From NCBI GenBank assembly GCA_041739995.1, contig JBGSMV010000071.1, positions 1 to 15,876 of the forward strand: a stretch of DNA of 15,876 nt, in the 5' to 3' direction. The notes beneath the pieces are model-generated. The model was given only the letters and a program-made list of their open reading frames with translations, was not told where the DNA came from and did not search any database. This DNA comes from Bdellovibrionota bacterium (lineage in GTDB: Bacteria; Bdellovibrionota_C; UBA2361; JBGSMV01). Position 1 is the stretch's first letter. Each line of letters opens with the position of its first letter. A program made the translations under genes and the position numbers. Shown here one piece after another: positions 73 through 15,876 of the stretch.

Positions 73-103
73 TTTTCCTCCTTAACACAGTTAATGAGGA
101 AAA
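73..103 (-). promoter_or_regulatory. Hairpin overlapping the orfA Shine-Dalgarno
   Basis: TTTTCCTCCTTAAC-ACA-GTTAATGAGGAAAA is an inverted repeat with one mismatch that would sequester the SD in read-through transcripts. Confidence 0.55.
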
Positions 104-141
104 CTAACTTCAGACTGGTCTACATTTCAGGGGGGACGTCA

Positions 142-241
142 CCTTCAACTAAACATTCTGGCCACTTAGCACGAACAACTTGTTGAAGGGTGTTGTAGGG
201 TATTAAAGGATGTTGAAGCTATTTACGTAAAAATTACGGAA
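142..241 (+). repeat. att-arm-like repeat, copy 1 (5'-truncated by the IS3 element)
   Basis: Near-identical to 3043-3142 and 14303-14392; contains four 10-bp units (TGTTGAAGGG TGTTGTAGGG TATTAAAGGA TGTTGAAGCT) and TTTACGTAAAAATTACGGAA. Confidence 0.9.
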
Positions 242-259
242 TTTTTCCCAATCAAGAAT

Positions 260-2750: not shown

Positions 2751-2844
2751 GTCCTTCGATGCGCTTCCTTCGACTCGTTTAACTCGCTCAGGCCTAGTCG
2801 CTTACTCAGGACTTACCATGAGAGAACAAACGCGAGTCGAATGG
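2751..2844. repeat. Cluster of nested/inverted CCTTCGA...CTCAGG REP-like palindromes at the tRNA 3' end
   Basis: Outer GTCCTTCGA...CTCAGGAC (2751-2812) encloses inner CCTTCGACTCG...CTCGCTCAGG (2767-2792); an inverted copy CCATGAG...CGAGTCGAATGG (2816-2844) overlaps the tRNA CCA. Confidence 0.65.
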
Positions 2845-2978
2845 TCCCGAGGGCGGGAATTGAACCGTTCGGCTGCCTTCGACCCGAGCTCAGGCCGAGG
2901 GTAGCTCACGTCGAAGCTCGCACGGCTGTTAACCCCAGGATTTTAAGTCCTGTATGTCTACCATTCCATCACTCGGGC
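2842..2978 (-). tRNA. tRNA-Leu(UAA), interrupted by a 52-bp insert in the T-arm; probable pseudo- or chimeric tRNA
   Basis: GCCCGAG-TG-ATGGAATGGTAGACAT-A-CAGGA-CTTAAAA-TCCTG, long variable arm, GCG[insert]GGTTCAATTCCCGC-CCTCGGG-ACCA. The acceptor stem is out of register by one base. Confidence 0.85.
2865..2916 (-). mobile_element. Type A nested palindromic mini-insert (52 bp) in the tRNA T-stem
   Basis: CTTCGACGTGAGCTACCCTCGGCCTGAGCTCGGGTCGAAGGCAGCCGAACGG; nearly identical to 14635-14687 and 15628-15680. The empty site is visible in the tRNA fragment at 14231-14240. Confidence 0.9.
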
Positions 2979-2998
2979 AAATAACCTCACTCACTTTC

Positions 2999-3142
2999 TT
3001 TTAAGTTCGCTGGGTACATTACCGGTCGATCCCCCTCAACGTCCTTCAACTAAACATTCTCGCCACTTAGCACGAACAACTTGTTGAAGGGTGTTGTAGG
3101 GCATTGAAGGATGTTGAAGCTATTTACGTAAAATTTACGGAA
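2999..3142 (+). repeat. att-arm-like repeat, copy 2, starting at the core TTTTAAGT (left junction of the cargo island)
   Basis: Similarity to 14259-14392 begins exactly at TTTTAAGT, the reverse complement of the tRNA-Leu anticodon loop plus one base. Confidence 0.9.
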
Positions 3143-3157
3143 AACTTCTATGCCTCC

Positions 3158-4969
3158 TCACGGACCGAAGGATACAGTTGAAGATGCCAACCGGACCAAA
3201 GCTTCTTGACCAATCGGCTCCTCAGGCTGCCAAGGCAGCCACGCGGTCCGTTTTGCATGAGTCTCAACGACTTCCTGCAAATACCGACGCTCTGATTCTT
3301 CGCGGCGTAGCAGAAGCGGATCGCAGGATCCGCTATTGAATAGGCTTTGATTTATGACCCAGGCGAAGGGCTCAATCTGCGCACGTCGCAGATCTTCCTG
3401 CAATGCAGCAGCCTCGTGAACTGGCGTCGCTTCTGGCAATGCGATCAGCAATATGCGGGTAAATGCTGGATCTCGCAGGCGCTCCAAAAGATGCAGCACC
3501 TCCTCTGGTTGCGTGCTGCGTGCTTGGCGCTGAAGTTCGCGGTGATACGCTTCGCTTGAGTCGAGCAACAATAGGGTGTGGCCGGTGGGAGCGGTATCCA
3601 GCACAACAAAACGCCCCTTCCCCTGCCCGACCTCGCGAGCGAAAGCTCTAAAAACTGCGATCTCTTCTGTGCACGGAGAGCGCAGGTCTTCTTCCAACAA
3701 GGCTCGCCCAGCTTCGTCCATAGCGGAGCTTTGGTTGCGCATAACCTCTGCTTGATAAGCTACTGTCTCGGCCGAAGGATCGATTTTACCGATGGTGAGT
3801 CCTGCAACCTGCCCCGCGAGTGTCTGAGCAACATGCGCTGCTGGATCGGTAGTGCTGAGATGAACAGAATGGCCGCGCTTCGCAAGCATCACGGCAATGG
3901 CGGCGGCAACGGTAGTCTTGCCAACCCCACCTTTACCCATCGTCATGATAACGCCATGTCCCTGCTGCTCGATCGTCGAAATGAGCGCTGCAAGGCACTC
4001 CATCGCGGGCGGTATCCATTTTTCCTTCTGTAGCATGCGCGGCCCTGACTGCTCAGTTTTTTTATCTGATCTAAAATCCAACAACTCACGCAAACCTCCG
4101 AGCCCAAGAATATTGATTGACCTTAAGGGAACAACAAAAGTCGACATACTGCTGATAAACTCATTTGCCGTGGCAAGTGCCAACATCCCTCGCTGCTGCA
4201 TCGCTTGCGCAGTGACATCCTTAGGGCATGTTGTTTCAAAAACGCCATTTACAACGAGGCATTGATTGCCCACACCAAGAGTGCGGAGCTCCTTTGAGGT
4301 ACGCTCAGCTTCGCGAAGTGCAGCAAGCTGCGGCCGACTTACTAGAACCAGAGTCGTTGCTGAGGCATCTGCCAACGTCTTCACTGTGGCTTCATAAATG
4401 ACCCGCTGCTTCTCCAAACCAGCAAGTGGTCCGAGACAAGAAGTACCGCTCGTATTTTTATCGAGAAACTGATCCCATGCCTTAGCGAGACTCATAAGCC
4501 TTAGAGTGTGCCCAGTCGGCGCAGTATCGAAGATAACGTGGTCGTAGTTCTTGGTCGCTTCGGGATCGCCGATGAGACCTGAGAATTCGTCAAATGAAGC
4601 GATCTCAACGGTACACGAACCTGAAAGCTGCTCCTCCATGCTTGCAAGTGCTGCGGTAGGGAGAAGGCCACGCATCGGACCAATAAGCCGTTCACGATAC
4701 GCAGCGGCCGCTGCAACTGGATTAATATTGATTGCATGAAGTCCGGGAGCGCCTGGAATCGCCGTGGGCGAATTCGTAAGCTTCACTTCCAATACTTCGT
4801 CCAAATTGGAAGCCGGATCGGTGCTTACCAGCAGTACCCGCTTGCCAGCCTCAACGAGCATCAGTGCAGTGGCACAAGACAGCGACGTTTTACCAACTCC
4901 TCCTTTTCCGGTAAAAAAAAGATAGCGTGTGGTTTCGGCGGGATTAGGTTGATAATTGGGAAGCTTCAC
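3158..4969 (-). CDS. arsA: Arsenical pump-driving ATPase ArsA
   Basis: Two GKGGVGKT P-loops, two DTAPTGH signatures, metalloid-binding Cys in GSCTVEIA, TSCLGP and SPCTEEIA. GTG start overlaps the arsD stop. Confidence 0.97.
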   Translation of the reverse strand: MKLPNYQPNPAETTRYLFFTGKGGVGKTSLSCATALMLVEAGKRVLLVSTDPASNLDEVLEVKLTNSPTAIPGAPGLHAININPVAAAAAYRERLIGPMRGLLPTAALASMEEQLSGSCTVEIASFDEFSGLIGDPEATKNYDHVIFDTAPTGHTLRLMSLAKAWDQFLDKNTSGTSCLGPLAGLEKQRVIYEATVKTLADASATTLVLVSRPQLAALREAERTSKELRTLGVGNQCLVVNGVFETTCPKDVTAQAMQQRGMLALATANEFISSMSTFVVPLRSINILGLGGLRELLDFRSDKKTEQSGPRMLQKEKWIPPAMECLAALISTIEQQGHGVIMTMGKGGVGKTTVAAAIAVMLAKRGHSVHLSTTDPAAHVAQTLAGQVAGLTIGKIDPSAETVAYQAEVMRNQSSAMDEAGRALLEEDLRSPCTEEIAVFRAFAREVGQGKGRFVVLDTAPTGHTLLLLDSSEAYHRELQRQARSTQPEEVLHLLERLRDPAFTRILLIALPEATPVHEAAALQEDLRRAQIEPFAWVINQSLFNSGSCDPLLLRREESERRYLQEVVETHAKRTAWLPWQPEEPIGQEALVRLASSTVSFGP

Positions 4970-5298
4970 AAAGTTACCTTTTTCTCATCCTCAAGTGCCG
5001 CACGACTAAATGCTGGTCGCTCAATCGCCGTCGGATAGCGCCCCTTCAGGTAGACCTCGTCGTTTAGAAATATCAGTGGCAACACATCGGTACCTTCGTT
5101 GTCGAGCAAAGCCTTTACGACCGAATTTTCTGCGAAGGCCATCGGCTGTTGGCCCATGTTGTAGCGCTCAATCGTGAGGCCCTGCGTACCTAATTGCGCA
5201 AGTAGCGCGGCAAAGTTCACGAGATCAGGATTAATATCAGTACCGCAAACGCCGGTGGAGCAGCACATCGGTGGGTCATAAACTCGAATGGATTTCAT
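4966..5298 (-). CDS. arsD: Arsenite metallochaperone ArsD
   Basis: YDPPMCCSTGVCG (Cys12/13/18) and GRYPT motifs; SD AGGAGG. Confidence 0.96.
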   Translation of the reverse strand: MKSIRVYDPPMCCSTGVCGTDINPDLVNFAALLAQLGTQGLTIERYNMGQQPMAFAENSVVKALLDNEGTDVLPLIFLNDEVYLKGRYPTAIERPAFSRAALEDEKKVTL

Positions 5299-5334
5299 AA
5301 TGGAACCTCCTGATACGACTTCAGATAAAGCTGA

Positions 5335-6450
5335 TTATAATAGGATGCTACGTTTCTTTTCGACATGTCCTTCGTCATAGAGGCGCTTTCGAAAGAATAA
5401 CGCGACACTAACGAGACCGATGAGCACTGGTACCTCAACCAATGGCCCGATCACTGCTGCAAAAGCTGCGCCAGAATTAATTCCAAACACGCCGATAGCA
5501 ACGGCTATGGCGAGCTCAAAATTATTACTGGCGGCGGTAAAGCTGAGCGTTGCTGTTTTGGGGTAGTCAGCACCTGCCTTGTAGCTTACATAAAACGAAA
5601 CCAAAAACATCACGACGAAGTAAATCAGTAGTGGCACTGCGATACGAAAGACATCAAAGGGCAATGCGATAATATATTCGCCCTTAAGCGAGAACATCAC
5701 CACGATGGTAAAAAGAAGCGCTATCAAGGTTAGCGGGCTGATTCTTGGGATGAATTGTTCGTCATACCAGTCTCGACCATTAGCGCGAACTAACCAAAAA
5801 CGGGTCGCCATCCCAGCAAGAAACGGAATTCCGAGATAGATGAAGACACTCTCCGCTATGGCAGCGATAGTGATTGTCGAGAGATCCACCGAACCGAAAT
5901 CCACTCCGAAGATTGGTGGAAGTACCTTGATAAAGACAAAGGCAAACAGCGAGTAAAAAAGCACCTGAAAGATAGAATTAAAGGCTACTAGTCCTGCCGC
6001 GTATTCTGGGTCACCCTTAGCAAGATCATTCCACACAATGACCATAGCGATACACCGGGCGAGGCCAATCATGATGAGCCCAATCGCATATTCTGGTTTA
6101 TCCGAAAGAAAAATAAGTGCCAACGCAAACATCAGACATGGGCCGATGATCCAGTTCTGAGCAAGCGATAGGCTAAGAATCTTCCAATCTCTAAATACCC
6201 TTGGCAGCTCCTCATACCTGACCTTCGCCAAAGGCGGATACATCATAACAATAAGACCAAGCGCTATCGGTATGGAGGTTGTTCCAACGGAGAGTGACGT
6301 AAGAAACGTGACGGCTGAGGGGGTGAAGTAGCCGACCCCAATGCCAAGGCCCATGGCAAGAAATATCCACAGCGTAAGCCAGCGGTCTAGAAATGAAAGC
6401 CTTCCGACAACTGTGGGGCTACAACAGTTCCTCGCATCAACACCACTCAT
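5335..6450 (-). CDS. acr3: ACR3-family arsenite efflux transporter
   Basis: [47 protein letters not shown] and GPLVEVPVL motifs. Confidence 0.96.
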
Positions 6451-6567
6451 ATCAATCCCTCAATTCATTCAATGCAGAAATTCACTTATCTCTCGCGTTG
6501 TCGGCACGCTTCCTACGAAGTCAACTTACCTTCCGACCATTTGAAGCTGAATTATTGGTGCAACTAC

Positions 6568-7008
6568 CTACCCAACTTCAGCGTGCGAGAGCCACTGAAC
6601 AATCTTAGCTTTTATCTCGTCTCTCACTTGTCGAAATTTCTGTAACTCGAATTCTTCTGTGCCATCAAAAGCTGCTGGATCCTCAAATGGCTAATAAAGT
6701 GTGCTCCCAGCAAACGGAAACATAGTTGGGCAGCTATTCTTAGCATTTTCGCAAACCATAATTGCAGCACGCACTGCGGCTTTTCCTAGGTATGTTGAAA
6801 CACTCTTCGGGTTCTGTTTACTTGTATCAATTCCGATTTCCGCCATCACTTTATGCGTAAGAAAATGAATCGGCTTGGGATCAAGTCCCGCGCGATGCGC
6901 ATCGAAACTATCGGGCGCATAATGGCGAAGCAACGCTTCAGCCATTTGGCTCCTAGCGGAATTGCCCGTGCAAAGAACTAAAACTACTGGTTTGCGTTTC
7001 TCCTCCAT
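6568..7008 (-). pseudogene. arsC: Second ArsC/LMW-PTP-type arsenate reductase with an in-frame amber stop
   Basis: CTGNSARS P-loop. TAG at 6691-6693 replaces the conserved Trp (LY*PFEDPA); the frame continues [33 protein letters not shown] to a TAG at 6568. Confidence 0.88.
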
Positions 7009-7029
7009 ATCTTGCTACGCCTTAATGCC

Positions 7030-7521
7030 TTAGCTAATTAAACTTGTTGGATTGGATAAAGATTCAGGAAGTCTAGCTACAAAGGCTTTAATCTCGTCAC
7101 GTACCCTTCTGTAGTGCCCAAGCACCTCCTCCTCAGACTTAGCATTCAATGCAAGCTTTGGTGGGTCATCAAATCCGACATGCACTTTTTTTGCGCCGCC
7201 GGGAAATATCGGACACGCTTCGTTTGCGGAGTCACAAACTGTGATTACGCAATCAAATGTCCTTCCGGTTAATGAATCGACATGTTTTGAGCCTTGCTTT
7301 GTAATATCTATTCCCACTTCGGCCATCACCTTTACGGCGAGAGGGTTTAATCCTTGCGGCTTTGTTCCAGCAGAAAAGGCTTCAATACAATCCTCCTTTA
7401 GGTGATGCGCAAAGCCTTCAGCCATCTGACTGCGGCAGGAATTCCCAGTACAAAGAAAGAGAATTTTTGTTTGCATAGTAGGACTTGCGCCGAACTCGTT
7501 CTTTCCATTCTTGTGCATCAT
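7030..7521 (-). CDS. arsC: Thioredoxin-coupled arsenate reductase ArsC (LMW-PTP fold)
   Basis: CTGNSCRSQMAEG, CDSANEACPIFPG, FDDP and RVRDEI motifs. The start may be downstream at MQTKIL (7476). Confidence 0.93.
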   Translation of the reverse strand: MMHKNGKNEFGASPTMQTKILFLCTGNSCRSQMAEGFAHHLKEDCIEAFSAGTKPQGLNPLAVKVMAEVGIDITKQGSKHVDSLTGRTFDCVITVCDSANEACPIFPGGAKKVHVGFDDPPKLALNAKSEEEVLGHYRRVRDEIKAFVARLPESLSNPTSLIS

Positions 7522-7536
7522 AAATTCTTTTCGATT

Positions 7537-7917
7537 TTATTTTTGCTCACAACAGCCGCCTTTAGCGCTTGGGGCACAACATCCCTCAAACGCACGTGCT
7601 AAATCCCTAAGTGCAGCGCTTATCTCTTTATAACGAACCTGATAGGAGACCACGCGCCCACTCTTCGATGATTGAATGACATTGGCCCGGGCAAGAATTG
7701 CTAAATGCCTCGACACCACCGAAAAATCGACTGAGCAACACTGCGAAACCTCGGTTACCGAACAAGGGCGCCCGCACTTTGCAAGGCACGATAAAAGTAA
7801 CAACCGAGTTGGATCACCCAGTGCTTTAAAGAGCTCTGCGTTCAAAAGCTTATCAATAGGCTCTTCTCGGGCCGAGGCATGCTTGGGAGATTTCGCATAT
7901 TTGTATACTTGCGCCAT
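7537..7917 (-). CDS. arsR: ArsR/SmtB family metalloregulatory repressor
   Basis: FKALGDPTRL and VVSRHLAIL HTH motifs; C-terminal GCCAPSAKGGCC. ATG at 7917 chosen from promoter geometry. Confidence 0.92.
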   Translation of the reverse strand: MAQVYKYAKSPKHASAREEPIDKLLNAELFKALGDPTRLLLLSCLAKCGRPCSVTEVSQCCSVDFSVVSRHLAILARANVIQSSKSGRVVSYQVRYKEISAALRDLARAFEGCCAPSAKGGCCEQK

Positions 7918-7952
7918 AATGCAAATATATGACCATTCCTCAAATTGATCAA
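7897..7952 (-). promoter_or_regulatory. sigma70-type ars promoter with overlapping inverted-repeat operator
   Basis: TTGATC (7952-7947), 17-bp spacer, TATATT (7929-7924), then 6 nt to the ATG; inverted repeat ATATTTG...CAAATAT at 7897-7928. Confidence 0.7.
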
Positions 7953-8012
7953 CAAGCATAAATCAAATTCTAATGATTGAATTTGAATCTGAGTGAGCGC
8001 AACATCGAAAAC

Positions 8013-10463
8013 TTACTTGCCTTGATACGCCAAGAGTCGCAGCGCATTAAGGACCACGAGAAGCGTTGAACCTTCGTGGAGGAATACAGCGGGGCCTAAT
8101 CTCAGTCCGAAGATGGTCGCTGGAACCAGAAAAACTACCATACCGAGACTTAACCAGAGATTTTGACGAATGATGCGGCTCGTTTGTCGGCTAAGACCGA
8201 CGGCGAAGGGAAGGTGATTTAGATCATCAGCCATAAGAGCCACGTCAGCGGTTTCTAATGCAACATCTGAACCCGCAGCACCCATCGCAATCCCGACCGT
8301 CGCGTTCGCCATCGCAGGCGCGTCGTTCACGCCATCGCCCACCATCGCAACGCCTCCTTCCTTGTTTAGCTTCCTGATCGCCGAGACTTTATCATCGGGC
8401 ATTAAATCGCCCAACGCTTCATCGATACCGACGGCTTTGGCTACCGCATTGGCAACCTGTTGGTTGTCGCCCGAGAGCATGATCATTCTCCTAATGCCAA
8501 GCGCCCGTAGGCGGATAATCACACCCTTGGCTGCGTCTCGCGGTGTGTCCATTAACCCGAGCACACCAAGGTAGGTATCACCACGGCGGACGATCATTAT
8601 TGTTCTCCCAAGCGCTTTAAGTTTCTCGACAGATTCGCGTAAGGCATCCGGTGGTGGCGGGCCCTCCACTTCCGTGAATAGGCTGTCTTTACCAATATAA
8701 ACCCGCTGACCATCGACTGTGGCTAGAACCCCCCGTCCGGTAACACTTTGCATGTCGTGCGCTTGCAGAACTGAATCGCTCTTCAGCCGTTCCTTGGCGC
8801 CTCGAACTACGGCTGCGGCCAGTGGATGATCACTTTGAGCTTCTACAGCGACCGCAACCTTCAACAATTCCACTTCAGTGACGCTATCGAACTTGATTAC
8901 ATCGGTAAGTCGTGGCTTTCCTTCAGTCAATGTACCAGTCTTATCAAATGCAATCGCCCCCAGCCGCCCTAAGTTTTCAAGCGGCGCGCCGCCTTTCACT
9001 AGTACGCCCCCGCGAGCTGCGCGAGCTACTCCGCTAAGTACGGCGCTGGGGGTTGAGATAGCCAATGCACAGGGGCTTGCCGCAACTAATACCGCCATTG
9101 CGCGATAGAACGACTGGCTAAACGGCTCGTCGATAATCGCCCAGGCAAACAGCAGCAGAACGACCAACCCCAGCACCGCAGGCACAAAATATCGCTCGAA
9201 CCTATCGGTGAAATGTTGCGTCGGAGACTTTTGCGTTTCAGCCTCGCTCACCATTTTGACCACACGGGCGAGCGTGGAGTCACGAGCAAGCTTTGTGACC
9301 TGAATTTCCAGTGAGCCACTACCGTTAATCGTGCCGGCAAAGACCCGATGTTGCGCATCGAGCCGGTCCGGATTCGTTGCGGCCTTAGGTAAATCGTCAA
9401 CGGGACGCTTGTCGACCGGAACGCTTTCCCCTGTGATCGGGGCCTGATCGACGACGCTTTCTCCCTTAATCACAAACCCATCGGCGGGAATACGCTCGTT
9501 CGGTTTAATCACCACCACATCCCCTAGCCGAAGCTGCTCCACGGGCACTTCTTTTGTCTCTTTCCCACGCCGGACTATCGCGGTTTGGGGTGCTAGCTCA
9601 GCGAGTGCTTCAATCGCCCGCTTTGCGCGGCCCATTGCGTAATGTTCCAACGAGTGTCCAATACTGAATAGAAACAAGAGCAGAGCACCTTCAGCCCATT
9701 CTCCGAGTGTAGCAGCGCCAATCGCAGCCACTAGCATCAAGAAGTCGATCTCAAAACGGCCAACACGGATGCTAGCGACCACTTCGCGAAGCGTGAAATA
9801 TCCGCCGAAAATGTAAGCGGCCAGATAGAAACTCCATGGTATCCACGGCGTGATGTTAGAGCGCCATGATACGAGCCAGCCGATAACCAGTAGCCCGCCG
9901 CAAAGCACTGCGAAAAGCAGTTCCGTTCGCTCCCCCAATAGGTCTCCGTGGTTCTGCTCTTTAGCGACCGCCTTAGGCCCAGCTTCGTAGGCAACTGATG
10001 GCTGAGGTGCGATCGTCTTTTCGGCAAAACGCACGCCGAATTTTCGCAGCTCCGCTCGAATGCTTTCGTCGTCGGTCGCCTCACGATCAAACTCAAGACG
10101 CACTACGCCAGCGGGCGACACTGCGGCATCCAGCACCCCCCGTATCTTTCTCGCTCGTGCTTCAACCGTGAGCGCCTGTGCAGCGAACATGGTTTCCGAG
10201 GTGACCAATAAATGACCAAATCGATCGTCGAGTTCCGCCCCAGCTCGTTCGGCCAAATCTCGAACTTCTCCAATCGAAAGTCGATTGGGATCAAAGTGAA
10301 TACAGATTGCTTCGTGGCCGTTGGCCTCGGTCTTAGCAAGATGGGCTTTCTCAATTCCTTTCTTCGCACTTAGTAATTCACTAAGTCGCTTAACGCACGC
10401 GTCACGAGCGTCTGGCACCGTCGGCAATAGTAAGGCGATATCAATCTTTGTTCTCTCAGGCAT
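8013..10463 (-). CDS. Heavy-metal P1B-type ATPase, P1B-4 subgroup (Co/Zn/Fe/Cd candidate substrates)
   Basis: TGES, SPC in the transmembrane metal site, DKTGT, HP, GDGVNDAP and HEGST motifs. Start overlaps the upstream stop by 8 bp. Confidence 0.95.
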   Translation of the reverse strand: MPERTKIDIALLLPTVPDARDACVKRLSELLSAKKGIEKAHLAKTEANGHEAICIHFDPNRLSIGEVRDLAERAGAELDDRFGHLLVTSETMFAAQALTVEARARKIRGVLDAAVSPAGVVRLEFDREATDDESIRAELRKFGVRFAEKTIAPQPSVAYEAGPKAVAKEQNHGDLLGERTELLFAVLCGGLLVIGWLVSWRSNITPWIPWSFYLAAYIFGGYFTLREVVASIRVGRFEIDFLMLVAAIGAATLGEWAEGALLLFLFSIGHSLEHYAMGRAKRAIEALAELAPQTAIVRRGKETKEVPVEQLRLGDVVVIKPNERIPADGFVIKGESVVDQAPITGESVPVDKRPVDDLPKAATNPDRLDAQHRVFAGTINGSGSLEIQVTKLARDSTLARVVKMVSEAETQKSPTQHFTDRFERYFVPAVLGLVVLLLFAWAIIDEPFSQSFYRAMAVLVAASPCALAISTPSAVLSGVARAARGGVLVKGGAPLENLGRLGAIAFDKTGTLTEGKPRLTDVIKFDSVTEVELLKVAVAVEAQSDHPLAAAVVRGAKERLKSDSVLQAHDMQSVTGRGVLATVDGQRVYIGKDSLFTEVEGPPPPDALRESVEKLKALGRTIMIVRRGDTYLGVLGLMDTPRDAAKGVIIRLRALGIRRMIMLSGDNQQVANAVAKAVGIDEALGDLMPDDKVSAIRKLNKEGGVAMVGDGVNDAPAMANATVGIAMGAAGSDVALETADVALMADDLNHLPFAVGLSRQTSRIIRQNLWLSLGMVVFLVPATIFGLRLGPAVFLHEGSTLLVVLNALRLLAYQGK

Positions 10464-12138
10464 TCTTTTTTACTCGATCATTCAGATCTTCAATCGCGGG
10501 ATTAAATAGCTTGTAGGTCTTATAGCCACCACTCACGTTTACGGCAGAATAGCCCATCTGCATCAGAATTCGGGTCGCTAAGTAGCCGCGCTGCCCGACT
10601 TGGCAATAGGAAGCAATCTTGCGGTCGGTTGGCAATTCTTTAAGGCGCGATCGTAGTTCGTCGATCGGCATGTTAACTGCACCTGGGATGTGCCCCGAAG
10701 CAAATTCCTGCGGTGTGCGAACATCCAAAAGAAACGGTCGATCGGCAACAGGAGCTGCAAATAGGGTTTCGACATCGACCTGGGGATGATCTCCACGCAA
10801 CAAGCCGCCCGCAACAAAGCCCGCCATATTTATCGGGTCTTTTGCCGAACCGTACTGCGGCGCGTAGGCGAGTTCCATCTCTTCTAGGTCGAAAACAGTC
10901 ATACCGGCTTGAATCGCAACGGAGAGAATATCGATTCGCTTATCCACGCCAGTCCCGCCCACGGCCTGCGCCCCCAGAACGTGACCCGTTGTCGGATCAA
11001 AGAGCAGCTTCAGTATCATCACTTCGGCACCGGGGTAGTACCCAGCGTGATGCGCCGGATGGACGTAAACCTTGTTAAATGCCCGCTTAGCTCGCCGCAG
11101 GATTTTCTCAGAAGCCCCTGTCATCGCGGCCGTGCGGTCGAACACTCCGACGATAGCGGTTCCCTGTGTTCCCCGATACTTTGACGACCGCCCGAAGACG
11201 TTGTCGGCAGCGATTCGTCCTTGTCGATTTGCAGGTCCAGCAAGAGGAATCTGAGTCGGCTCGCCCGACAAAACGTCCTTGACCTCAATCGCGTCACCAA
11301 CCGCATAGATACACGCGTCGCTAGTTTGCAGAAATTCGTTAACCCGGATCCCACCACCGCGCCCTACCTCGAGGCCCGCGTCGACTGCAAGCTTACTTTC
11401 CGGGTGTACCCCCACTCCGAAGATGACAAGTTGGGCAGGGAGTCGTCGACCTGAATTCAAGCAGGCGACCAATCCCTCGGAGGTTTCCTCCAACGCTTCG
11501 GCAGTTTGTCCGAGAAGTAATGTGACGCCTTTGTTCGCCAATTCGTGAACTAGCGGTGTAACCATCTCCTTATCGAACGGTGTAAGAATCTGCTCACTCC
11601 TCTCGACCACCGTGGTTGCAATGCCGCGTCTAACAAAATTTTCCGCGAGTTCGAGATTTATGAAGCCACCTCCCAAGAGTACGGCCTGCTTCACGCCATG
11701 TGCCACTCGCGCCATTATTCGGTCAGTATCTTGTAAGTCTCGCAGCGTAAACACGCCGGGCAAGTTAACACCGGGAATTGACGGGCGTACCGGAGCCGCG
11801 CCTGTTGCGAGGATTAGCTTGTCATAAGATTCGACGTAATCCTTTCCGGACGCTAGGTCACGAACACGAACAGTCTTTGCAGTGCGATCGATAACTTCAA
11901 CAGACGACCGAATTCGCAAGTCGAGTCTAAAACGCGCGCGCAACAATTCGGGCTTCGTGACGAGCAGTTTTTCTCTCTCTGAAATTTCGCCGCCGATGTA
12001 ATAAGGAAGCCCACAGTTCGCGAAGGATACATCCGGCCCCCGCTCAAACAGCACGATTTGCGCGTCCTCCGAGAGACGCCGCGCCCGAGCGGCAGCCGAA
12101 GCACCTCCGGCCACGCCGCCAATTATTACTAATTTCAC
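10456..12138 (-). CDS. CoA-disulfide/persulfide reductase with C-terminal rhodanese domain (CoADR-RHD/Npsr-like)
   Basis: GGVAGG FAD motif, SFANCG redox Cys, GGGFI NAD(P)H motif, YAPQY, rhodanese LDVRTPQEF...GHIPGA...YCQVGQRG; GTG start with AGGAG SD. Confidence 0.92.
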   Translation of the reverse strand: MKLVIIGGVAGGASAAARARRLSEDAQIVLFERGPDVSFANCGLPYYIGGEISEREKLLVTKPELLRARFRLDLRIRSSVEVIDRTAKTVRVRDLASGKDYVESYDKLILATGAAPVRPSIPGVNLPGVFTLRDLQDTDRIMARVAHGVKQAVLLGGGFINLELAENFVRRGIATTVVERSEQILTPFDKEMVTPLVHELANKGVTLLLGQTAEALEETSEGLVACLNSGRRLPAQLVIFGVGVHPESKLAVDAGLEVGRGGGIRVNEFLQTSDACIYAVGDAIEVKDVLSGEPTQIPLAGPANRQGRIAADNVFGRSSKYRGTQGTAIVGVFDRTAAMTGASEKILRRAKRAFNKVYVHPAHHAGYYPGAEVMILKLLFDPTTGHVLGAQAVGGTGVDKRIDILSVAIQAGMTVFDLEEMELAYAPQYGSAKDPINMAGFVAGGLLRGDHPQVDVETLFAAPVADRPFLLDVRTPQEFASGHIPGAVNMPIDELRSRLKELPTDRKIASYCQVGQRGYLATRILMQMGYSAVNVSGGYKTYKLFNPAIEDLNDRVKKNA

Positions 12139-13672: not shown

Positions 13673-14031
13673 AGTCTATCGCTCCCACTCATTTGAGCCC
13701 TGGTCTTTTCGACAGTTACCTTTCGTACTTTAGTATTAAGCAGCTCTTCTGGGTGAGATGGTCATGATGCTCATCATATGCTCCCCCATCAAATGAGCAC
13801 AGCGCACCTGGCGGTGTATTTTCCAGCGCGGTGAGCGGCGTACGGGAAGTCCAGGACTTTAGATGTCGATTTGACGCAGCGCTTCGCCCGGAGCCGAGTT
13901 CCTGCCACGACGCTATCTGAGCTATTTTTCCCCAATGTAAATCGATTTCTGGTGCATGAATAAACCTTGGAAGTATCGCCCACACGGCAGTCTGTCCTTG
14001 TAAACTTTGGTCGTGAAGAGGGGCTGCTCCT

Positions 14032-14060
14032 GCCCGCCAAAGCTTCAGCGACGGCGGACT
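14032..14060. repeat. Single type B REP-like palindrome
   Basis: GCCCGCCAAAGCTTCAGCGACGGCGGACT is nearly identical to the right arm of the insert at 15454-15528. Confidence 0.8.
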
Positions 14061-14214: not shown

Positions 14215-14266
14215 TGCCCAGGGCGGGACTTGAACCCGCACGGCTGTTAACCCCAGGATTTTAAGT
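14215..14266 (-). other. 3' half of tRNA-Leu(UAA): att identity block
   Basis: ACTTAAAATCCTGGGGTTAACAGCCGTGCGGGTTCAAGTCCCGCCCTGGGCA matches the tRNA at 2842-2978 from the anticodon loop onward and has no insert; the 5' half is absent. Confidence 0.9.
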
Positions 14267-14392
14267 TCGACGGGTACAATACCGGTCGACACCCTTCAAC
14301 GTCCTTCAACTAGATATTCTCGCCACTTAGCACGAACAACTTGTTGAGGGGTGTTGTAGGGTATTGAAGCTGTTTACGTAAAATTTACGGAA
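14259..14392 (+). repeat. att-arm-like repeat, copy 3
   Basis: Near-identical to 2999-3142 but has three rather than four 10-bp units. Confidence 0.9.
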
Positions 14393-14634
14393 ATTTTGAA
14401 CCCCTCGACGCCCCCCTTCCTGCTCCACCTAGGCAACTTTCCGCTGCAATTACCGATTATGTTAGGTGTTGCAGTGTCGCCGCTGGGAGAGCACCAAGAA
14501 CTCGCTCCAGCATTATCGCCGAAGAACTCCAGAGCAGACGCAGCTCTACCGCGTCGTCTATCACGGACGAGACGAGCTATCTCGGGTCTGGGAAGAGCGC
14601 TTTCAGCAAACCTATGGCGTTCTTCGTGACGAGG

Positions 14635-14687
14635 CTTCGGCCGTGAGCTACCCTCGGCCTGAGCTCGGGTCGAAGGCAGCCGAACGG
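14635..14687 (+). mobile_element. Type A nested palindromic mini-insert (53 bp), frameshifting
   Basis: Removal joins GAG G|TC (Glu-Val) and restores the frame; identical to 15628-15680. Confidence 0.9.
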
Positions 14688-14830
14688 TCTTAACGACGTT
14701 CGATGAGTATCTCAATTGCGGACTGCTCGCGCACGGGGCGGCGCGAGTCTATTGCGATACCTGCAAGCATTCGTTACTCGTGGCATTTTCATGCAAAAAG
14801 CGCGGGATTTGCCCGAGCTGTGGCGCGAAG

Positions 14831-14898
14831 TCCGTCTTCGCATAAAGCTACGCCGGGACTGACTATTAGACCACGCCGTAGCATTTTGCGTAGGCGGG
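14831..14898. mobile_element. Type B REPIN-like doublet insert (68 bp), frameshifting
   Basis: About 25-bp inverted arms TCCGTCTTCGCATAAAGCTACGCCG and CGCCGTAGCATTTTGCGTAGGCGGG; removal joins AAG|CGC (CGAK-RAVKF). Confidence 0.85.
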
Positions 14899-15453
14899 CG
14901 CGCCGTGAAGTTCGGTGAACATCTCTACGATTCAGTCCTTGAGAAGGTGCCGCATCGGCACTGCGGCTTTACGCTCCCAAAGCGCCTACGAGTGTATTTT
15001 AGGTACGACCGGAGCCTGAACAATATTCTCTTTCAGGCGGCAGCTACCGCCGTGCATTCAGTGCTTGGCTCAGATACCAAAAGCACCGCACTTGTCCTCA
15101 CCGTGCAGACTGCCGGTGAGGCACTTAACTTCAATCCACATCTGCACGGGTTACTTGCCGATGGGACATTCGAAGCATCTGGAAAATTCACCCCTCTTGC
15201 TGCCATAGACATCGAGGCTCTCACCTGCCACTTCGAAAACGAGGTGCTCGCGAAACTCATCACCCGGGGACTCATCACCGATGACGAGGTTGCCCAGATT
15301 CTTGCCCAAGAGCATTCGGGCTTCGGTGCCTGGGTCGGAGAACCATTCGAGGAGGCGGACCGTACAAAATTCGTCGCACGCTACATCGAACGGGGTCCGA
15401 TCTCGCTAGAGAAGCTGACAATCCAGGATGATATAATTACCTACACCACCAAG

Positions 15454-15528
15454 TCCGACTTCGCTAAAGCTGCGTCGGGACACCGCCGTTGCATGGGAGG
15501 ACCACGCCAAAGCTTCAGCGGCGGCGGG
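15454..15528. mobile_element. Type B REPIN-like doublet insert (75 bp), in frame
   Basis: TCCGACTTCGCTAAAGCTGCGTCGGGAC-spacer-GACCACGCCAAAGCTTCAGCGGCGGCGGG after AAG; adds 25 aa SDFAKAASGHRRCMGGPRQSFSGGG. Confidence 0.85.
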
Positions 15529-15627
15529 GACGAGCGCGCTCATGAATTCGATGCCATGGAGTTTCTCGCACTCCTGTCCTGTCATATTCCGAAACCATAC
15601 GAATGTATCACTCGATACTACGGCTGG

Positions 15628-15680
15628 CTTCGGCCGTGAGCTACCCTCGGCCTGAGCTCGGGTCGAAGGCAGCCGAACGG
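15628..15680 (+). mobile_element. Type A nested palindromic mini-insert (53 bp), introduces a stop
   Basis: Removal joins TGG|TAC, giving the conserved RYYGWYS. Confidence 0.9.
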
Positions 15681-15730
15681 TACTCGTGCAGGGCGAGAGG
15701 GGAGAGAAAAAAGCGCATTCCCGTTCAAGA

Positions 15731-15746
15731 CTCCCCTCCCCTCCCC
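15731..15746 (+). repeat. (CTCCC)3 tandem repeat causing a frameshift in the transposase
   Basis: Three units give TAG at 15747; two units put the WAQCFKRIYEINPLECPRC C-terminus in frame. Confidence 0.7.
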
Positions 15747-15876
15747 TAGAGGTCGGAGGGCGACCATCGCTCACCTGGGCGCAATGCTTCAAGCGCATCT
15801 ATGAAATTAATCCGCTCGAGTGCCCACGCTGCAAAAATGAGATGCGAATCATCGCATTCGTTACCAATGAGCGAGA

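Follow-up and report, generated by a model that had tools for sequence, protein, structure and literature searches.

The window analysed here is the whole of contig JBGSMV010000071.1 (15,876 bp; contig C16 in our numbering) from the metagenome-assembled draft genome of a Bdellovibrionota bacterium, which comprises 81 contigs (3.81 Mb, 52% G+C). Its right-hand end, from position 14466 to the contig end (15876) on the plus strand, carried a copy of an IS91-family transposase gene interrupted by four short inserts, designated i1–i4. Below, C-numbers denote contigs, G000 denotes the genome of the window and G001–G088 denote other genomes of the order. The small subunit (SSU) rRNA of the draft genome was bacterial and full length (1594 bits). 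Public sequencing runs containing the stretch were hot-spring and biofilm metagenomes.

A preliminary description, made from the DNA letters alone, had assigned the gene to the HUH transposases of the IS91 family. This was borne out by an intact paralog in the same assembly (C77:2159-3433, 425 aa), in which the domains Zn_Tnp_IS91 (65 bits) and Y2_Tnp (58.1 bits) were recognized and which scored 154.7 bits against the NCBIfam equivalog NF033538 (cut-off 125; the window copy itself is broken). The inserts divide the window copy into five pieces on the plus strand, all of them stop-free and each in the expected frame. Piece 1 (14466..14634, frame 0) runs from the N-terminus to ...VLRDE and was 89% identical to residues 1–57 of the C77 paralog. 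Piece 2 (14688..14830, frame 2) covers the zinc-binding region, the part matched by Zn_Tnp_IS91 in the intact paralog, and ends in ...CPSCGAK. Piece 3 (14899..15453, frame 0) contains the Y2_Tnp domain (55.2 bits), piece 4 (15529..15627, frame 0) ends in ...ITRYYGW and piece 5 (15681..15876) continues past the contig end. The motifs that had been described as intact were all located: the zinc-finger cysteines (CxxC...CxxC) in piece 2, the HUH motif (NPHLHG) in piece 3 and the tyrosine motif RYYGW|YSCR, divided by i4, among whose paired tyrosines we take the catalytic residues to lie. The sole further lesion was a frameshift in piece 5, where a (CCCCT)n run (15733-15747) is one unit too long, having three units in the window and two in C75; the insert-free reading was thus free of stops apart from one repeat unit, as previously stated. 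One contig of run X1 lacked 5 nt at 15731, showing that the repeat-unit slip is polymorphic.

Positions 15736-15876 of the window, its last 141 nt, overlapped C63:1-141, and C75 terminated at the same base as C16. The window copy's right end falls outside the contig. Right ends such as ...GATCGATCTTCCTACTCGCT and ...GATCTTACTATCCAT, which presumably resemble the published oriIS consensus, were common to copies in G047, C77 and the largest genus. The repeated DNA of the genome amounted to approximately 13 kb, nearly all of it belonging to this IS91-type family.

The four inserts, all on the plus strand, belong to two families. Inserts i1 (14635..14687) and i4 (15628..15680) are family A elements of 53 nt, identical to each other over 56 nt; the boundary of i1 is ambiguous by the GG that flanks it on both sides, and the site of i4 was also occupied in C36 and C75. 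Insert i2 (14831..14898, 68 nt) is an inverted doublet of family B modules that forms a long hairpin or near-palindrome. Insert i3 (15454..15528, 75 nt) is a family B doublet with extra internal sequence, across which the frame is read through; in G001, a genome of the same genus, this gene had an 84%-identical element some 33 nt further upstream. Aligned to the insert-free copies in C77 and C8, each insert appeared as a clean gap at a codon-level junction, so the earlier count of four inserts of 53, 68, 75 and 53 bp stood. The insertions were exact: C77 and C8 have the same target words as the window gene, and neither i2 nor i3 had a target duplication longer than 1 nt. Insert lengths of 31, 34, 53 and 68 nt, as found here and in the copies described below, shift the reading frame, and a stop codon follows i1 immediately in the shifted frame. 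A search of Rfam at E ≤ 1 gave nothing for any insert.

The description of the inserts as hairpins was upheld statistically for one of them only. Compared with shuffled sequence, the 68-nt i2 folded significantly better (z = −3.8 and −3.2), whereas the 53-nt element (z = 0.1 and 0.4) and the 75-nt i3 (z = 0.2 and −0.9) folded no better than the shuffles. The 5' arms of both i2 and i3 matched a covarying hairpin model, named R1, built for family B. Insert i2 itself interrupts the loop of GGCGCG-AAG^CGCGCC, a hairpin native to the gene.

Family B consists of a module of approximately 27 nt, NCCNCC-TTCGC(N)TAAAGCTAC-GGNGGN', followed by an ACAAG or ACAGG tail. Its stem covaried among 51 copies from many sources: columns 1-27 were occupied by UA (26), CG (12) and GC (4) pairs and columns 13-16 by UA (27) and CG (21) pairs, both column pairs being independent of the criteria by which the copies had been picked. 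Family B is therefore a real structured element. In metagenomes the module was very common (at least 120 loci). With model R1, 42 matches (E ≤ 1) were found in the genome of the window, and 60 of 91 genomes of the order had matches, at 0–54 per genome (lower bounds). Given this abundance, we regard family B as a local repeat resembling the repetitive extragenic palindromic (REP) sequences. In 8 of the 42 matches, one module lay in the apical loop of another (C48:5412, C26:8240, C77:63161, C64:32229, C17:12663, C17:17504, C9:7444 and C5:18059 of G000), so modules can sit in hairpin loops. The nested modules were embedded in a composite repeat of approximately 100 nt, CCATTTAATTCGAGGAGGCT...GGCGGGACGTCGTCGTCTGT, with at least 20 copies in the genome. 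A solitary weak module upstream of the transposase gene (14027..14058, minus strand; R1 E = 0.2) matched the 3' arm of i3 over 23 nt.

The family A element is 53 nt long, has a 32-nt core that is conserved widely, and was present in seven copies in the genome of the window. Its ends, CTTCGGC...GCCGAAC, are complementary at 6 of 7 positions, and six of the seven copies had GG on both sides. The core was found letter-exact at 19 loci in genomes of other species (delta proteobacteria, a Lacipirellulaceae bacterium and others, by record label) and in one other genome among 41 relatives searched. In run X7, from activated sludge, the matches covered the family A core over about 35 nt and the i3 arm over 32 nt only, in other contexts. 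An origin of family A from integron attC-like sites or from serine-recombinase sites with a GG core was considered and dropped, as the end sequences did not fit. Within the genome of the window, i2 (two copies), i3 (one copy and the 23-nt fragment) and family A were not found outside the transposase family and two tRNA-Leu contexts described below. The view, already put forward in the preliminary description, that the inserts are small mobile repeats of the REP type, a class in which we include REPINs (inverted REP doublets) and transposable elements of the miniature inverted-repeat kind (MITEs), was supported.

Diverged copies of the transposase gene on four other contigs of the assembly had these inserts too, in matching positions. 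Between C16 and C13, i1 was identical (56/56 nt) although its flanks were 86.5% and 81.7% identical and synonymous sites differed at a proportion of 0.45. Between C16 and C36, where the synonymous difference was 0.79, i2 matched at 67 of 68 nt (flanks 70.4% and 79.6%) and i4 at 56 of 56 nt (flanks 69.6% and 59.2%). Identity broke off 4–9 nt outside each insert. A neutral insert inherited by descent is expected to diverge to roughly the extent seen at synonymous sites. The inserts, being far more alike than the synonymous sites, are therefore either much younger than the gene copies that carry them or tightly constrained. Judged by these identities, their arrival appears to have been recent relative to the divergence of the copies, and the same nucleotide positions have been occupied repeatedly in diverged copies.

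Chimeric joins made during metagenome assembly or binning would offer a trivial explanation, as the genome is an 81-contig draft and the gene runs into a contig end that overlaps C63 by 141 nt. We consider this hardly credible. Contigs made by another assembler from public runs crossed the junctions without mismatch (records 2 and 3 of run X1 cross i1 and span i2, records 13 and 15 of run X2 span i2 and i3, respectively, and record 21 of run X3 spans i3 and i4), although they are not fully independent because the runs may include the source sample. The same inserts also occurred on the four other contigs, and like inserts in 16 other genomes.

Of the 91 genomes of the order, 56 had homologues of the transposase gene. 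Inserts were surveyed in chained protein matches over fetched loci, a non-random sample that was in part chosen for hints of split genes. Small inserts of 31–34, 50–56 or 65–68 nt interrupted this gene in at least 16 further genomes, at approximately 14 sites, 10 of which were common to diverged copies; a 203-nt 'insert' in G020 was excluded since it contains a masked run of N. Elements resembling family A were reversed in G050 and G059 but had the forward orientation in G068. A third, double-hairpin family, C, adjoined the HUH motif in G088, G074 and G073. Single family B modules of 31–34 nt were found in G005, G054, G066, G067, G072, G076 and G077, and doublets in G077, G001 and G047. Modules stood at the site GFG(A/V)^W in three copies of G000 and also in G054, G077 and G005, and the clades in which this site was occupied also included intact, insert-free members. 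On this sequence comparison, related modules have been acquired by the gene family many times across the order.

The interrupted copies bore few other signs of decay. Two of them (G077:C18 and G067:C11) were full length, with two inserts each and no stop, and copies with 2–4 inserts mostly had no other lesion. Pairs of copies that shared an insert had synonymous differences (pS) of 0.29–0.59 and ratios of nonsynonymous to synonymous substitution (dN/dS) of 0.07–0.15, compared with 0.06–0.08 for five intact pairs, and the 31-nt inserts shared by such pairs differed by 1 nt only. The lineage-specific ratio of nonsynonymous to synonymous changes (N/S) was 0.22–0.41 in seven insert-bearing copies and 0.20–0.35 in eight intact ones. 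With N/S not raised and other lesions mostly lacking, the earlier suggestion that inserts arrive faster than point decay was supported.

The same values agree with a reversible interruption, in which the inserts would be tolerated and seamlessly removed, either from DNA by an HUH enzyme, in the manner of IS200/IS605 elements, or at the level of RNA or the ribosome, and would act as an off/on switch of transposition. Copies sharing an insert diverged at a dN/dS like that of intact genes, N/S was not raised in most insert-bearing copies, the inserts were far more conserved than synonymous sites in copies that were otherwise open, and their patchy presence and absence would also fit precise loss. 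We nevertheless find this account doubtful. Recent insertion into genes that diverged while intact would explain all of these data equally well, the common insert lengths shift the frame and a stop follows i1 at once. Against a translational bypass element, no matching take-off and landing codons were seen in i1 or the 31-nt module on inspection by eye, and no bacterial removal or bypass mechanism of this kind is known for such inserts. As to the empty-site junctions that had been proposed as a check, no RNA run was listed among those containing the stretch, and no exact empty site occurred among the Logan contigs of four runs, which as contigs cannot show absence; joints skipping 53 nt (i1) and 75–76 nt (i3) were present only in contigs with 6–14 mismatches, that is, in other copies. 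More speculative, and in our view slightly more doubtful, is a picture of the modules as hyper-parasites or gates that home to a few positions of the transposase gene, switch it off and leave seamlessly, so that elements of 31–75 nt would constitute a reversible on/off layer of transposition at the level of DNA. With a seamless exit, interrupted genes would remain under purifying selection (dN/dS approximately 0.1), silent but revivable.

The reading we prefer, at a probability of roughly 0.55, is that REP/MITE-like hairpin elements insert seamlessly and site-preferentially into this IS91-family transposase gene. Preferential targeting of rolling-circle elements had been among the proposals of the preliminary description, and part of the evidence sustains it. 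Identical inserts occupied identical sites in copies with a pS of 45–79%, and shared sites recurred across the order. Seven of the 42 R1 matches, representing four distinct sites, fell within the 9.6 kb (0.25% of the genome) of transposase-family DNA, an enrichment with P = 1.6e-11 relative to the genome share and P = 2.5e-5 relative to an assumed non-coding share of 12%. Among the best 150 R1 matches in the order, at least 15 were in transposase genes, counting matches within sequences already shown to be such genes; a further 522 matches lay outside this count.

Several observations weigh against this reading, the first being that outside samples had no relation to IS91 genes. No IS91 homologue was detected within 1.5 kb (tblastn or a 15-protein profile) of any of the 19 family A core loci or of the 80 family B loci fetched out of at least 120 in metagenomes, and when five genomes from the largest genus were used in the order of the table, none of 16 pattern matches was in a transposase gene. 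In five other genomes 14 of 25 pattern matches were in transposase genes, a figure that is biased because those genomes had been picked for having inserts. Insert-bearing copies were also co-amplified with the insertion sequence (IS): the same insert with its flanks was present in both C11 and C28 of G072 and in both C15 and C250 of G077. Because inserts recur together with their flanks within and between genomes, the copies are non-independent and the counts inflated. The idea that the elements ride on rolling-circle elements was borne out only as passive co-amplification with IS copies.

The last points fit a passive history, in which a REP-like repeat lands randomly in whatever DNA tolerates it. 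Dead or dispensable transposase copies would then be the largest tolerated target in a compact genome, subsequently multiplied in trans and shuffled, with no targeting involved. The dispersed family B population fits this, with 35 of the 42 matches outside transposase DNA and modules in 60 of 91 genomes, as do the outside samples and the identical copies of insert plus flank. Internally deleted IS derivatives that retained the right, ori-like end were likewise found in G000 (C67:4430-4690, 18440-18700 and 26830-27090; C41:101770-102030; C14:65410-65670), one deletion type in three copies and another in two; one type, with two copies, started within a family B module at codon 308. Their multiplication shows that defective IS copies are mobilized in trans. 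A comparable claim of association between the repeat RUP and IS in the pneumococcus was later not upheld (PMC3049150). Even so, passive accumulation with hitch-hiking seems to us a possible but unlikely explanation of the whole. It does not account for inserts that are 98.5–100% identical where synonymous sites differ by 45–79%, with identity ending within 4–9 nt, or for the occupation of the same nucleotide position in clades that also hold intact, insert-free members. Copies with 2–4 inserts were without other lesions, the enrichment persisted against the 12% non-coding share, and in this genome family A and the i2 and i3 doublets were confined to the gene family and the tRNA-Leu copies.

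Further reservations concern the copies themselves. The 'paralogs' lie on short contigs of a metagenome-assembled draft and could for that reason belong to different strains. Some of them were mosaic: C75 resembled C36 (93.5%) up to i4 and matched C16 exactly beyond it, the homology of C13 stopped 5 nt beyond the i2 site, and G072:C11 and C28 were 96–100% identical upstream and diverged between two insert sites. Junctions of this kind, located at inserts, imply that some exchange between copies has occurred. They raise the alternative that each insert arose once and was then transferred, as the insert only, into diverged paralogs by recombination or gene conversion. This is distinctly improbable, as conversion tracts would have to end within 4–9 nt on both sides in flanks only 60–87% identical, and so little homology is insufficient for homologous recombination. 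Transfer would also leave unexplained why the same family A element is found at two sites and why related modules occupy shared sites across species. Another copy, at C67:6500-6800 of G000, had at its i4 site 16 nt of family A in reverse orientation and then unrelated DNA, which looks like a rearrangement between oppositely oriented family A copies.

The targets and the orientation of the inserts also weaken the case for targeting. Target words were weak, with GG^T in family A and none held in common by family B; to the left of i2 and i3 stood GAAG, CAAG and CAAG, and to the left of other family B copies GAT, GGA, GAC, AAA or AAC. The bias of strand or orientation predicted by a single-stranded target was not seen among the modules, which occurred in both orientations relative to the gene and therefore do not fit a simple one-strand model. 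For family A neither a significant fold nor covariation was found, in a sample with little power because it had been chosen by exact 32-mer. An origin of the inserts from the IS's own ends was rejected, the ends of three lineages being without such modules.

In the preferred reading, the locus is an IS91-family copy (HUH, two-tyrosine, rolling-circle) whose transposase gene was inactivated when four tiny non-autonomous hairpin-type repeats inserted seamlessly. Single-stranded DNA (ssDNA) as the rolling-circle intermediate is described as established for the IS91-type family (PMC3189936). Such an intermediate may expose hairpins and make the gene a preferred landing place, with insertion favouring hairpin loops or other ssDNA features of the gene. 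An HUH-type single-strand nuclease might catalyse the insertion without target duplication, the candidates being the IS's own transposase acting in trans or a Y1 enzyme. Two weak Y1_Tnp matches (29.9 and 21 bits) were obtained in the genome. The only lead to an enzyme was a 335-aa open reading frame (ORF) at C68:1677-2684, directly downstream of the 3' remnant of an IS91-family gene, with an IS200-like Y1_Tnp domain (28.1 bits) and the HUH motif in the form HIH. No family A or B match lay beside the ORF, and no REP-associated tyrosine transposase (RAYT) gene flanked by modules was found in the genome. The practical effect of the insertions would be the silencing of transposase copies.

The nearest known kind is that of the REP/REPIN sequences with their Y1 transposases, and copy number, intragenic position and the missing cognate gene do not agree with its usual definition. 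Family B shares with it the short GC-rich hairpins, the covarying stems, the inverted doublet (i2) and the dispersed copies. REP/REPIN sequences, however, number more than 100 copies per genome and are extragenic, whereas R1 matches here were fewer and all four inserts lie within a gene. In the family B module it is the loop that is conserved, and GTAG is located inside this loop on the opposite strand instead of at the foot. In REP/REPIN systems with a RAYT, the cognate gene is flanked by repeats; here no such gene was found and many copies lay inside one gene family. For family A, no significant palindromic hairpin of the kind by which REP/REPIN sequences are recognized was found.

Comparable intragenic inserts are the Rickettsia palindromic elements. 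IS200/IS605 palindrome-associated elements and bypass elements (T4 gene 60, yeast mitochondrial byps) are small, contain hairpins and are seamless. The present inserts resemble the latter two in being seamless, small, without clear target duplication and located in coding sequence, and differ from IS200/IS605 in that no conserved target tetranucleotide was found; neither excision nor bypass was seen. For REP sequences, mobilization by an HUH enzyme acting on ssDNA has been proposed (PMC3733652). The same source (Di Nocera et al. 2013) describes REPs within coding regions, among them dual inserts in each of the two uvrA genes of one species, REPs of different kinds at nearly the same recB site of two Xanthomonas species, and REPs that had inserted into small target palindromes (PMC3733652). 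The position of i2 in a native hairpin loop and the nesting of modules in each other's loops are similar to the last of these. The cases of Di Nocera et al. concern housekeeping repair genes, while the host here is a transposase gene, the inserts mostly shift the frame and identical inserts occur in diverged paralogs.

RUP of Streptococcus pneumoniae was once proposed to insert preferentially in or near IS and thereby to limit functional transposase genes, an association that according to the same account had no support in complete genomes (PMC3049150). RUP is a 107-bp, TA-targeting, IS630-linked element with inverted repeats; in the present case an enrichment was measured, partly inflated by co-amplification. 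One-ended transposition of IS801, a member of the IS91 family, yields miniature derivatives, and a 229-nt fragment interrupts the IS91-family element ISPsy3 (PMC3189936). The deletion derivatives that keep the right end are of this same kind, whereas the four inserts share no sequence with either IS end and are 3–4 times shorter. In our literature search, which covered sources other than subscription journals, no description of recurrent site-specific invasion of an IS91-family transposase gene was found.

Small palindromic repeats are usually seen as extragenic clutter, and their movement is rarely caught. In this gene family numerous gains at defined positions are naturally recorded, and intact relatives stand next to interrupted ones; target choice and the enzyme responsible are therefore directly testable. 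Should targeting be true, tiny repeats would be a main route by which a rolling-circle IS is disarmed in these bacteria, with a bearing on the restraint of gene-capturing elements of the IS91/ISCR type. Should the inserts prove reversible, they would represent a new way to regulate a transposase. Since gene callers split or miss interrupted genes, copy counts of the family in metagenome-assembled genomes are understated.

A third copy of family A in the window (2867-2918, 52 nt, minus strand) interrupted a full-length tRNA-Leu(UAA) gene copy (2843..2983, minus strand; Rfam tRNA 29.3 bits) within its T arm, and ARAGORN recognized this tRNA only once the 52 nt had been removed in silico. The preliminary description had noticed no such insert in the other ~13 kb of coding sequence; in non-coding DNA of the window one does occur. 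On C27, an uninterrupted tRNA-Leu(UAA) gene preceded a 3' tRNA fragment that had this family A insert. An archaeal bulge-helix-bulge intron was ruled out by the bacterial SSU rRNA and by this uninterrupted gene. Elsewhere, family B modules were seen within or directly beside tRNA 3' ends (G053:C431:77-108, G055:C253 and the metagenome loci L152 and L175).

A repeat of approximately 160 nt, rich in GTTG(T/A)AGGG, occurred three times in the window (98-255, 2999-3156 and, on the plus strand, 14259-14406). The third copy is upstream of the transposase gene as part of the left-end region of the element, was partly shared upstream of the intact C77 paralog and abuts a tRNA-Leu 3' fragment (14215-14266, minus strand). 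One copy of the repeat adjoins the anticodon-loop half of a tRNA-Leu. The repeats bracket a Fic-domain gene (1453-2646) and an arsenic/metal cluster, and could be tandem islands at tRNA-Leu or ter-like left-end signals with capture of the cluster by read-through. The metal-resistance block (3158-12138, minus strand) encodes ArsA, ArsD, an ACR3-type (SBF) carrier, two ArsC-like phosphatases and ArsR, together with a P-type ATPase and a fusion of CoA-disulfide reductase and rhodanese. Antisense to an oxidoreductase gene (11951-12119, plus strand), a sub-threshold Rfam match to the Vibrio antisense RNA AS7 was obtained (51.9 bits; gathering score 90), which probably reflects conserved coding sequence. 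The other Rfam matches in the window at E ≤ 1 were a borderline tRNA match and one plant microRNA family.

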